Source: a virus
Virus record (IMG/VR): IMGVR_UViG_3300033233_000017
Span: 1-64,000 of that record
Strand: one strand, 5' to 3'
Length of the DNA stretch: 64,000 nt
Shown here: positions 7,656-9,143 of the stretch, one piece after another
Position numbering within the stretch: position 1 is the first letter of the stretch
How the letters are laid out: each line of letters starts with the position of its first letter
The notes under the pieces: model-generated
Seen by the model: only the letters and a program-made list of their open reading frames with translations
What the model was told of the DNA's origin: nothing
Databases searched by the model: none
Program-made: the position numbers and the translations under genes

Positions 7656-7979
7656 TTATTGGGGCAGGGCCGGACTGATCTCTTCGCTGAGCGAATCATC
7701 TTCCTTTACGGTTCGGATGCTCCCCTGTTGTTTCTCATAAGCCTCGACCATTCGGCTAAGGAGGTCACGCACCCTTATGGCGTGCTCCCACGTTAGTATG
7801 ACCTCTCCCCCCTCTTCTACAATCAGCCCCTTGGACGGCTCCCTCGCAATCCGGCTAAACGTCAGAGCAAGTTCGCAAAATCCCGGGAGCGCTTCCGTAT
7901 GATTTGCGTAAATCGAAACAAAACGCTCAGGGCGCGTCCTTGGTAGATCCGCGATCGGAACCTTCTTTTGTTCAGGCAT
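7656..7979 (-). CDS. DUF3467-like protein
   Basis: IYANH...LTFSRI...VILTWEHAIRVRDLLSRMVEAYEKQQGSI pattern; AGAGGA RBS before ATG 7979. Confidence 0.6.
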   Translation of the reverse strand: MPEQKKVPIADLPRTRPERFVSIYANHTEALPGFCELALTFSRIAREPSKGLIVEEGGEVILTWEHAIRVRDLLSRMVEAYEKQQGSIRTVKEDDSLSEEISPALPQ

Positions 7980-7986
7980 AAATCCT

Positions 7987-8553
7987 CTACGCTGGCACCG
8001 TGTCGTATTTTGGGACACTGCTGGAACTGGGGTGTGGTCGGAATGGCAAAACGCGGGCCATATCGCAGGGCTGCGCAGTCTCGCGCACATCCACCGTAGT
8101 ACCTGTGGTACCGGGGTTGAGGGCCGGCACCCGATGCTCTGTTCGGTCACTCGCTATTGGCTTTCGCTCCGCAAACTCCAGATCGTCTTTGAACTCCGGT
8201 CGCTCCAAGAATCCCCGGCTGAATCTGAAATCCTCATTGAGCAACGTTCCAAATGTTTCAAAGCTGATTCTCAGCCGCACGCCCAACGCGCGGGCGATGC
8301 GTTTGAGGGTTTCGGTCTTCCACGTTGAGTGATTGATGTCCTCAAGGCGAGAAACACCCGGTTGTTTTGTGCCGATCAGATCACCAAGCTCCACTTGGCT
8401 CATCCCGCGCTGCTCCCGTAAGGTCACAATTTGCGTGGCTACCCAAGTATTCAGAAAATCTTCAGCGTAGGCGTATCGATATTCCTCATCCTGAAACTCC
8501 CGCCGTAGATCCTTACGGGATTCGCTGGTGAATACGTCGTCGTGCCGAGTCAT
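7987..8553 (-). CDS. XRE-family HTH regulator/antitoxin (HigA-like) with a long C-terminal tail
   Basis: QIVTLREQRGMSQVELGDLIGTKQPGVSRLED...TLKRIARALGV. Confidence 0.85.
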   Translation of the reverse strand: MTRHDDVFTSESRKDLRREFQDEEYRYAYAEDFLNTWVATQIVTLREQRGMSQVELGDLIGTKQPGVSRLEDINHSTWKTETLKRIARALGVRLRISFETFGTLLNEDFRFSRGFLERPEFKDDLEFAERKPIASDRTEHRVPALNPGTTGTTVDVRETAQPCDMARVLPFRPHPSSSSVPKYDTVPA

Positions 8554-8911
8554 TTATAACCGCCTCCCGACGCTCTGCTGCTTTTTCCCTTGACCCTAGA
8601 GGGAGTTGTCCCCCTATTTCCACAGCGCCAAGCAAGAGCGTGTACTCCGCATCATTGTCCATCGGACCGCGACACAACATAGGCCGAAGTTGCACACAGC
8701 CCTTTGCGTGCAGTTTATATATGTGTTCGTAAATCGGACCCGCTAGCAGTTTTGTATTTATTGCGAGGTTAAAGTCCACTTGCGCCAGTCGCCGAATCTT
8801 TTGATTGAGTTGTGCCCGATCGCGCTTGTCGAGTCGGTCAGCTAATACCCATTTCAAAATGACGTTTTCATTGCGATGGTCAACAAAGTCCCAAATCAGA
8901 AGATCAACCAT
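8513..8911 (-). CDS. RelE/HigB (Gp49-like) toxin homologue
   Basis: ~132 aa, directly upstream of and overlapping the XRE gene (toxin-first order); IYKLHAKGCVQLRPMLC...YTLLLGAVEIG strands. Confidence 0.6.
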   Translation of the reverse strand: MVDLLIWDFVDHRNENVILKWVLADRLDKRDRAQLNQKIRRLAQVDFNLAINTKLLAGPIYEHIYKLHAKGCVQLRPMLCRGPMDNDAEYTLLLGAVEIGGQLPLGSREKAAERREAVINDSARRRIHQRIP

Positions 8912-8913
8912 TA

Positions 8914-8986
8914 TACTAACAGGGAACCTCACATAACGCAAGAGTTATAAACCCCTGTTGCGCCCATATAACACCTGTGTTATATT
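8914..8986. promoter_or_regulatory. Divergent promoters with two ATAAC-N6-GTTAT palindromes
   Basis: Palindromes at 8933-8948 and 8968-8983; rightward TTGCGC(8958)-17-TATATT(8981); leftward TTGCGT(8941)-17-TAGTAT. Confidence 0.7.
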
Positions 8987-9047
8987 CGGTAAACACCTTA
9001 AACTAAAAAGCCAGTGGCCCATTTTGGAACCACTGGCACTCTAATGC

Positions 9048-9143
9048 GGTGAGTTGGCAGAGTGGCTGATTGCGCCAGCCTTATAAGCTGTGTAGCGGTA
9101 CTCGCACTACCGCTCGCGGGTCCGAATCCCGCACTCACCGCCA
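9048..9143 (+). tRNA. Class II tRNA with serine-type body and anticodon UAU (reads Ile AUA)
   Basis: Acceptor GGTGAGT/ACTCACC, G73, encoded CCA; D region TGGCAGAGTGGCTGATTGCG; anticodon loop CT-TAT-AA (9082-9084); 7-bp variable stem AGCGGTA/TACCGCT; T arm GCGGG-TCCGAAT-CCCGC. Confidence 0.9.

Follow-up and report, generated by a model that had tools for sequence, protein, structure and literature searches.

Natural tRNAs whose charging identity clashes with their anticodon are, to our knowledge, rare. In Streptomyces, the chromosomal tRNA-ProA is a mistranslating tRNA that is served by a dedicated synthetase, ProRSx. A second group, the allo-tRNAs, was described near toxin-antitoxin genes and transposon-related open reading frames (ORFs) in Acidobacteria (Mukai et al. 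2017; PMC5389517), and some of its members insert serine at leucine codons in E. coli (Mukai et al. 2017; PMC5389517, PMC7609411). According to the 2017 paper, UAU is the commonest anticodon in the serine-type allo-tRNA group, and soil metatranscriptomes contain polycistrons of irregular tRNAs termed tRNA0, tRNA1 (G-1, GGU) and tRNA2 (Fig. 4 therein; PMC5389517). Here, we analyse a 64,000-nt stretch of viral DNA (positions 1 to 64,000 of IMG/VR record IMGVR_UViG_3300033233_000017, hereafter the window) in which an insertion sequence (IS) of the IS1595 family carries a serine-type tRNA gene with the isoleucine anticodon UAU next to a candidate toxin-antitoxin operon, and we compare it with 73 related toxin loci, which are referred to by locus number.

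The window tRNA resembles the allo-tRNAs in its serine identity combined with a non-serine anticodon, its link to Acidobacteriota, whose MAGs hold the closest loci, and its toxin-antitoxin and transposon neighbours, and allo-like UAU tRNAs occupy the same site in L014, L015, L022 and L028. However, allo-tRNAs are defined by a 12-bp acceptor branch split 8/4 or 9/3, whereas the split in the window tRNA is 7/5, so that by this defining feature it is not an allo-tRNA. Unlike allo-tRNAs it is also, position 27:43 aside, free of stem-destabilising mismatches. L005 and L021 match the published polycistrons in that they carry an irregular RNA and a G-1/C73 tRNA (GUU or GGU) upstream of the same toxin family, which makes the window locus, with its single Ser-type tRNA, a sister of those loci.

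The remaining comparisons concern the context of the tRNA. With Streptomyces tRNA-ProA it shares a disagreement of identity and anticodon that is kept by selection, but it has no linked synthetase, is IS-borne and appears to be under the putative control of a toxin-antitoxin repressor. HigBA modules and the HigB1-HigA1-SecB-like toxin-antitoxin-chaperone (TAC) system of M. tuberculosis have in common with the locus a toxin-first gene order, a gene overlap, an XRE-type helix-turn-helix (HTH) antitoxin, palindromes, a HigB-like toxin model and, in some loci, a third small gene. They differ in that the window toxin has no Pfam HigB, RelE or Gp49 match and in that the third gene belongs to the DUF3467 family and is not SecB-like among the structural matches listed. 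We know of no HigBA or TAC system with a tRNA gene under its operator. Transporter IS, which occur in the IS1595 and IS1 families, likewise have a single DDE transposase, terminal repeats and passengers inside; here the passengers are a toxin-antitoxin cassette and a tRNA gene.

The general kind, identity/anticodon-mismatched tRNAs beside toxin-antitoxin and transposon genes in Acidobacteria, is already known. The canonical 7/5 Ser-type UAU form, the IS1595 carriage into a phage, the toxin-XRE family, the operator-in-promoter layout and the IS1 leader context are new. The main text of Mukai et al. 2017 defines neither a HigB-fold toxin/XRE family nor operators or IS1/IS1595 boundaries. A literature search, in which that paper was judged on its main text, found no paper on a tRNA passenger in an IS, and none that described the toxin-XRE family beside the tRNA, an operator placed in the tRNA promoter or the IS1 leader context.

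A serine-type tRNA with an anticodon for AUA

ARAGORN identified a single tRNA in the window, 96 nt in length and with anticodon TAT (Table 1). The Rfam tRNA model aligned to it over the full length with 50.6 bits (E 7e-9; gathering score 29), a value inside the range of 50-63 bits obtained for the class II tRNAs of one Acidobacteriota metagenome-assembled genome (MAG). The molecule folds into a canonical 7/5 cloverleaf with a 7-bp acceptor stem, including G1:C72, G2:C71 and U3:A70, and a 5-bp T stem; in both the ARAGORN and Rfam alignments, the potential eighth acceptor pair would place U8 opposite C. U8 and A14 are present, the D arm is serine-like (C11:G24, GG in the loop, one G.U in the stem), the anticodon loop reads CUUAUAA, the variable stem comprises 7 bp and CCA is encoded after G73. 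Pairing is intact at all stem positions except 27:43, where C27 faces U43 at the top of the anticodon stem. Each feature for which the initial annotation had called a complete 96-nt tRNA with a Ser-type body and a UAU anticodon is matched by the ARAGORN and Rfam folds. Within the set of related tRNAs described below, the window copy is the best formed, although it has no downstream transposase gene.

To assess identity, sequence profiles were built from the class II tRNAs found in four Acidobacteriota MAGs in which related loci are present. The window tRNA scored 41.1 bits with the Ser profile and 10.0 bits with the Tyr profile while the Leu profile gave no match. In the same MAGs, G73 is found in all 11 tRNA-Ser genes and A73 in 14 of 14 tRNA-Leu and 2 of 2 tRNA-Tyr genes, the latter both having short variable stems, and one host tRNA-Ser(CGA) has an acceptor stem nearly the same as that of the window tRNA. 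The body thus displays the long variable arm, G73, G2:C71 and C11:G24 of a bacterial tRNA-Ser, in good agreement with the serine assignment made initially, but its anticodon is UAU and not the NGA or GCU of serine codons. Conversely, the class I body and A73 of a tRNA-Ile are both absent, and the fit to isoleucine is limited to the anticodon-loop determinants of E. coli isoleucyl-tRNA synthetase (IleRS). Recognition by seryl-tRNA synthetase (SerRS) relies on G73, the acceptor stem and the long variable arm, and the anticodon plays no part in it. Judged from its sequence, the window gene is an intact tRNA with a fold kept by selection, serine identity and an anticodon for the isoleucine codon AUA.

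Carriage by an IS1595-family element in a phage

The tRNA lies within an element of 2905 bp which also holds an intact IS1595 transposase gene, a DUF3467 gene, an XRE-HTH gene and a 132-aa ORF. Its ends are 27-bp inverted repeats of perfect complementarity; these two are the only copies of the repeat in the window, where none would be expected by chance. The transposase matches Pfam DDE_Tnp_IS1595 over the full profile (2.6e-35), Zn_ribbon_IS1595 (5.3e-10) and NCBIfam transpos_IS1595 (6.5e-55), and a DDE_Tnp_IS1595 transposase with an N-terminal zinc ribbon together with terminal inverted repeats places the element in the IS1595 family. The proposal that tRNA and toxin-antitoxin-like genes travel inside one pair of IS1595 repeats therefore stands.

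The element has inserted into a small ORF of the phage record. Excising it together with 8 nt rejoins a small open frame (MKDPKI joined to QFACEKC...), and 5 nt would do so equally by frame arithmetic. No clean 8-bp target duplication was found: the flanks CCGAAAAT and CCGAATCC agree at 5 of 8 positions, and CCGAA recurs in them 3 nt out of register. The record is that of a virus, and RecT and helicases are encoded in the window as parts of a phage-like replication module. A comparison of the whole IS with a phage collection returned no match. IS1595 carriage is confined to the window in this sample, and no IS1595-type inverted repeats were found around L002 and L028. Downstream of the window tRNA there is no transposase gene and only a 45-nt trailer that is shared with L002; in the pairwise alignment, GATTGTGCTC...TGCAAT is conserved and similarity falls off beyond it.

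A recurrent tRNA-toxin-XRE cassette

The 73 related toxin loci comprise 67 from a profile scan of one genome per species, three from a metagenome scan with a single protein and three from a viral-contig scan with the toxin profile. All 73 contain the toxin-XRE pair, and 15 (16 of 74 with the window) have a DUF3467 homologue as third gene. In about 23 of the 73 loci, all but two of them from Acidobacteriota, a divergent tRNA-like gene precedes the toxin gene at a distance of ca. 100-260 nt, and 10 of these tRNA-like genes pass the Rfam tRNA threshold. No tRNA was seen in a clade of 18 Proteobacterial loci and the three viral-contig loci, and the tRNA pattern was not matched in a scan of viral sequences. 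A search of toxin homologues for adjacent anticodon-swapped tRNAs, which the initial annotation had put forward, found tRNAs at the same place with anticodons that mostly do not fit the body.

The partner tRNAs fall into several structural types (Table 1). Their bodies carry the marks of the serine, alanine and histidine synthetases, which need the anticodon little or not at all. The eight Ser-type tRNAs show two to four pair types at nearly every stem position with few broken pairs, and this variation under maintained pairing indicates selection on the fold. A 7-nt anticodon loop with U33 and A37 is found in the entire Ser-type set except L051. In that locus, from a Tectomicrobia MAG (4776-4865), the anticodon region of the Ser-type tRNA reads GGUUAGA without a standard 7-nt loop, and ARAGORN assigns no anticodon; this tRNA may act in frameshifting or may not decode.

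On the toxin tree, sister toxins differ in the anticodon of their partner tRNA, and in the clade of the window UAU, GUA, irregular and polycistronic types occur side by side. Grouping by tRNA body places the window with L002 and L001 with L068, contradicting the toxin tree. The tRNA therefore behaves as an exchangeable part. The anticodon ACU is found on three different bodies (the L024 type, L029 and L063), which suggests selection on the anticodon.

Table 1. Features of the window, in window coordinates, and of related loci.
Feature	Location	Strand	Basis or detail
Left terminal inverted repeat, IS1595-family element	6365..6391	.	perfect complement of the right repeat over 27 nt
IS1595-family transposase, 343 aa, zinc ribbon and DDE domain	6417..7448	+	Pfam, NCBIfam
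DUF3467-family third gene, 107 aa, predicted beta-beta-beta-alpha module	7656..7979	-	Pfam PF11950 3.1e-8
XRE-type HTH protein, 188 aa, putative antitoxin/repressor, HigA-like position	7987..8553	-	Pfam, gene order
HigB-fold (RelE superfamily) toxin candidate, 132 aa	8513..8911	-	predicted fold, context
Operator-like palindrome O1 (ATAAC-N6-GTTAT), between toxin start and promoters	8933..8948	.	pattern search
Putative sigma-70 tRNA promoter: -35 TTGCGC 8958-8963, 17-nt spacer, -10 TATATT 8981-8986	8958..8986	+	read from sequence
Operator-like palindrome O2, extended TATAACAC-N2-GTGTTATA, across spacer and -10 of tRNA promoter	8967..8984	.	sequence, pattern search
Hairpin, terminator-like on toxin-sense strand, 5' leader on tRNA strand	9010..9037	-	11-pair stem then T-run
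tRNA gene, Ser-type class II body, anticodon UAU, G73, encoded CCA	9048..9143	+	ARAGORN, Rfam, Ser profile
Short trailer common to window and L002, the only other UAU copy of this type	9158..9188	+	pairwise alignment
Right terminal inverted repeat, IS1595-family element	9243..9269	.	27/27 nt complementary to left repeat
IS1-family units	L005:3381-6598, L021:3441-6947, L001:3645-6474, L024:3473-6524		inverted repeats
Ser-type 7/5 class II tRNA, G73, anticodon UAU	window, L002		
Ser-type 7/5 class II tRNA, G73, anticodon GUA	L001, L008, L010, L068		
Ser-type 7/5 class II tRNA, G73, anticodon UAA	L013		
Ser-type 7/5 class II tRNA, odd anticodon loop	L051		
Class I tRNA with G3:U70 (alanine mark), anticodon ACU	L024, L033, L036		
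Other class I bodies, anticodon ACU	L029, L063		
G-1/C73 tRNA (histidine mark), irregular RNA before it, anticodons GUU, GGU	L005, L021		
Irregular RNA alone ('tRNA0' type), no assignable anticodon	L004, L069		
8/4 allo-like tRNA, two shared acceptor mismatches, anticodon UAU	L015, L022; L014, L028		L015 and L022 read in detail, L014 and L028 by similarity
8/4 allo-like tRNA, anticodon UAA	L027		
8/4 allo-like tRNA, anticodon uncertain	L056		

Putative operators in the tRNA promoter

The pattern ATAAC-N6-GTTAT matches twice in the 64 kb of the window (8933-8948 and 8968-8983), with no match expected by chance, and both times in the region between toxin and tRNA genes. Twin copies at the same place are present in L001, L002, L004, L010, L068 and L069, all of the window's clade. 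Other toxin/XRE clades have different palindromes there, for example ATCAC-N6-GTGAT in the allo clade. Such clade-specific palindromes are as expected of cognate repressor-operator pairs. In the relatives, a -35 box (TTGACA or TTGACC) and a -10 box point at the tRNA, with O2 in the 17-18 nt between them, and a promoter scan called a tRNA-strand promoter over the operator in L001 and L010. A coupling of the tRNA to the XRE protein, as suggested initially, is supported by the position of the O2 palindrome, a putative operator, in the spacer and -10 region of the tRNA-facing promoter and by the repetition of this layout in relatives. From these sequence features, we infer on good grounds that the XRE protein controls the tRNA.

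In most relatives, hairpins of the form GGCCAG...CTGGCC lie before the tRNA; those of L004, L001 and L010 have a terminator-like shape when read on the toxin strand. The corresponding hairpin of the window, at 9010-9037, probably shields the cassette from read-in transcription. A rough test for antisense or leader complementarity to the tRNA was negative, the RNAduplex energies of the flanks being no better than those of shuffled sequences (z -1.3 to +2.8).

The toxin, XRE and DUF3467 genes

The 132-aa ORF has 151 homologues but no Pfam match even at E 10 and none in NCBIfam or PADLOC, and a search of its family profile against PDB sequences found no toxin. An AlphaFold model built from 34 homologues reached a pLDDT of 92.7. 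The best Foldseek match of this model was S. pneumoniae HigB (6af4; TM 0.70-0.78, E 1e-3), and M. tuberculosis HigB1 (Rv1955) and V. cholerae HigB2 were also among the best; the HigB chains 7awk and 7nbu gave TM 0.57-0.69. PF05973 (Gp49) is present in only 20-32% of the proteins in neighbouring Atlas clusters. The 'RelE/HigB-like' label given to the gene initially thus agrees with the predicted fold but finds nothing in the curated sequence families of Pfam, NCBIfam and PADLOC, and we treat the protein as a HigB-fold toxin candidate on the grounds of modelled fold and context.

The XRE protein matches Pfam HTH_3 (2.7e-8) and HTH_37 (1e-4) and, weakly, HipB, MqsA and RstR-type HTH models of NCBIfam. 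Its start overlaps the 3' end of the toxin gene by 41 nt. The locus therefore has the order of a type II HigBA module, that is a toxin, an overlapping HTH gene and palindromes upstream which are putative operators.

For the DUF3467 protein, the model (pLDDT 85) gave weak fold matches to COMM (Z 6.1), Pur-alpha (5.2) and PC4 (4.7); SecB was not among the structural matches listed, and no sequence-level link between DUF3467 and SecB was found. The C-terminal tails of XRE proteins with and without a DUF3467 partner did not differ significantly (median 104.5 vs 91.5 aa, p = 0.12). An interpretation of the three genes as a TAC system is thus not supported by the listed DUF3467 matches or by the lengths of the XRE tails.

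Possible regulated mistranslation and the alternatives

The features described above can be assembled into one scheme. The cassette, consisting of a HigB-fold toxin, an XRE antitoxin/repressor, sometimes a DUF3467 protein and a divergent tRNA, travels on insertion sequences of Acidobacteriota. The XRE protein would bind O1 and O2 and, as O2 lies across back-to-back -10 regions, would keep both the toxin operon and the tRNA off. Once the antitoxin is lost or titrated, both would be transcribed, and the pre-tRNA would be processed and then serylated by SerRS irrespective of its anticodon. The resulting Ser-tRNA would compete with the lysidine-modified tRNA-Ile2 of the host at AUA, possibly also reading AUG by wobble, and serine would be inserted for isoleucine. 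Addiction, a stress switch or an interference payload are possible benefits. Based on the sequence data, regulated Ser-for-Ile mistranslation is plausible, and we tentatively favour the whole chain of a regulated, Ser-charged, AUA-reading tRNA in a mobile toxin-antitoxin cassette, at a likelihood that falls somewhat short of even. A number of observations weigh against it and are considered in the following together with the other explanations they touch on.

The first group concerns codon usage. AUA makes up 12 of the 774 codons in the element's own genes, that is 15.5 per 1000 compared with 3.55 in the phage (4.4x), and in the cassette genes these codons fall at conserved Ile/Leu/Val columns. 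A search of the cassette-gene alignments for AUA at Ser-like columns, which would be a recoding signal, found none. The element thus follows the standard genetic code, and a UAU tRNA carrying serine would cause mistranslation rather than belong to a reassigned code. Since the element's genes are AUA-rich, insertion of Ser for Ile would damage the cassette itself the most. Further, a comparison of anticodon and cassette codon usage across loci revealed no coupling.

The same AUA excess at conserved isoleucine positions would suit a helper tRNA that is charged with isoleucine, or at least speeds up AUA decoding, and so helps the AUA-rich genes of the element to be expressed where the host or phage is GC-rich. 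Major IleRS determinants include the anticodon, A37 and A38, and a few bacteria do use a tRNA-Ile(UAU). Yet position 73 of the window tRNA is G and not A, its body is class II and scores 41 bits with the Ser profile, and its 4:69, 12:23 and 29:41 pairs are unlike those of the E. coli tRNA-Ile identity set, which was reportedly worked out by Nureki et al. in 1994. A helper function also leaves the sister loci unexplained, where the same body carries GUA or UAA and Ala- and His-type bodies carry other anticodons, and it does not fit with the missing link between anticodon and cassette codon usage. Of all the explanations, we give this one the least weight.

A second group of observations questions whether the tRNA gene is functional at all. 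The T loop, UCCGAAU, has C55 in place of the near-universal U55. The putative tRNA promoter of the window remained under the threshold of the promoter scan, and its -35 box (TTGCGC) is weak. Together with the C27:U43 mismatch, the acceptor-stem mismatches of L002 and L068 and the lack of CCA in L068, these features could mark a hitchhiking, decaying and functionless tRNA-Ser pseudogene whose anticodon has mutated by chance. The T loop and the mismatch had already been noted initially as signs of attenuation or decay; both are real, but relatives share them, and they are therefore better seen as family traits than as decay. Five of the eight related Ser-type tRNAs lack a Watson-Crick pair at 27:43; of four host tRNA-Ser genes, three have G.U there and the fourth is fully paired. 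C55 recurs in L001, whose T stem differs. Moreover, a decaying gene is difficult to reconcile with the same placement in about 23 loci, with compensatory changes in all stems, with the constant 7-nt loop, U33 and A37 of the Ser-type set (L051 excepted) and with a window copy that scores like bona fide host class II tRNAs. A pseudogene thus appears scarcely probable.

The third group relates to activity and distribution. A search with the Ser-like D-arm pattern through 401 genomes of the phylum retrieved mostly ordinary tRNA-Ser and only two non-Ser anticodons. Six published allo-tRNA(UAU) variants were inactive as amber suppressors in E. coli, and two of them were lethal (PMC5389517). While this inactivity disfavours productive decoding, the killing of E. 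coli by two of six UAU variants could point, as proposed initially, to an RNA toxin or codon-specific defence effector, repressed by the XRE protein, that scrambles AUA-rich invaders and spares a GC-rich host. The operator-in-promoter layout would be suitable for such a role, some anticodons of the family correspond to codons that are rare at high GC (AUA, UUA, AGU), and the fast turnover of anticodons between sister toxins is typical of conflict systems. On the other hand, the copy studied here resides in a phage and not in a host defence island, and with a phage AUA frequency of 3.55 per 1000 it is the cassette that is the AUA-rich party. In PADLOC, the toxin and DUF3467 proteins are unmatched and the XRE protein has weak HTH-level matches only, and the family anticodons GUA, GUU and GGU read common codons. 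We regard a defence effector as very unlikely.

The last group stems from the IS1 context of the relatives. In at least 12 of them (L001, L004, L005, L010, L013, L021, L024, L029, L033, L036, L051 and L063), conserved hairpins and then the gene of an IS1-family transposase (NF033558, 1e-29) come after the tRNA on the same strand, with the tRNA in the 5' leader of that gene. GGTAGTG-type inverted repeats enclose transposase, tRNA and toxin-antitoxin genes in units of 2.8-3.5 kb at the four loci checked (Table 1). A conserved GUCAUUUUG box in the leader can pair with the start-codon region CAAAAUGAC of the transposase gene, an arrangement that, from the sequence, looks like translational control. 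The RNAs of L004 and L069, found in the same type of leader or at the same site, are too irregular to decode. The location of the tRNA in a transposase leader opens the possibility of a cis-acting processing signal.

The tRNA would then have no part in translation and would serve the IS as a cis element with the shape of a tRNA, or as a small RNA. It might be either an RNase P/RNase Z processing signal which cuts or destabilises the transposase leader or a structured RNA which titrates a factor, and the window copy would be left over from a recent capture in which the transposase context was lost. The 12 leader loci, the possible pairing with the transposase start codon, the inverted repeats around whole units in L001, L005, L021 and L024 and the irregular partner RNAs in the same transposase leaders all are in line with this explanation. 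However, a processing signal needs no U33, purine 37, 7-nt anticodon loop, encoded CCA or Ser/Ala/His marks, all of which are kept, and the occurrence of ACU on three bodies hints at anticodon selection. IS1-family toxin-XRE elements without a tRNA exist as well (L031, L043, L064 and L066), and the tRNA is intact in the window and in L002 although no transposase gene follows either. An intact window tRNA outside a transposase leader argues for a role of its own. Overall, we consider a non-translational function unlikely, while recognising that it has a real chance of being correct.

The Ser, Ala and His marks, the proper anticodon loops, the encoded CCA and ACU on three bodies speak for a translational role, and regulated mistranslation remains the explanation that we prefer. 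A broader version of it would cover the entire family: the cassette might be a switchable recoding payload in which the HigB-type module's antitoxin also represses an identity/anticodon-mismatched tRNA (Ser, Ala or His), so that its loss would free both an mRNA-cutting toxin and codon-specific mistranslation. We judge this generalisation to be decidedly improbable in its full extent. If true, it would represent mobile, repressor-gated mistranslation in the service of addiction, stress response or phage-host conflict, here with serine inserted at AUA by way of a phage-borne IS1595 element.

Carriage by both IS1 and IS1595 elements implies that the cassette is a passenger of insertion sequences in general. 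The genomic logic of the allo-tRNAs stayed vague in the 2017 account, and the window locus and its 73 relatives now provide a testable frame, consisting of one toxin-XRE family, a fixed tRNA position, a clade-specific putative operator in the tRNA promoter and IS1/IS1595 carriage. On structural grounds, the window tRNA is the strongest candidate to date for a functional tRNA that decodes AUA as serine. If active, it would constitute regulated and horizontally mobile mistranslation; if inactive, it would show that insertion sequences control themselves by means of RNAs shaped like a tRNA. Both outcomes would be of interest for tRNA engineering in genetic code expansion.

Further observations

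Two further loci deserve mention. L163 (G162:C16:137881-140907), one of the two non-Ser matches to the D-arm pattern, has GCA (Cys) at the anticodon position and is not called a tRNA by ARAGORN, and no toxin, XRE or IS1 gene was found within 1.5 kb of it. L133 (G002:C115:118683-118795) is a tRNA-Ser(UGA)-like gene with a D arm like that of the window tRNA and, unlike other host tRNA-Ser genes, without an encoded CCA; it may be another mobile Ser-type tRNA, in this case with its cognate anticodon.

A second IS1595-family transposase gene (Pfam 3e-33) is located at 11097-12077 of the window, 1.8 kb from the first element, and the two ORFs downstream of it (12090-12917 and 12907-13704) have no PHROGs match. 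Between the two transposase genes, near-identical palindromes AATCAGCGCAGATCTGCGCT at 9559-9584 and 10915-10940 flank a VWA-like gene (9609-10469, phrog_7371) and probably serve the phage as a regulatory site that has nothing to do with the IS. An ordinary tRNA-Pro(UGG) is encoded on the same phage record at 73791-73868, beyond the window.

Among the related genomes, a Pyrinomonadaceae MAG has a c-di-AMP riboswitch (Rfam 61 bits; L008:3541-3749) downstream of its cassette, at a distance of ca. 0.5 kb. The Blastocatellia MAG that contains L001 harbours a long tRNA array on contig C22 of G002 (ca. 84.7-88.5 kb), with about 40 tRNA-model matches in 4 kb.

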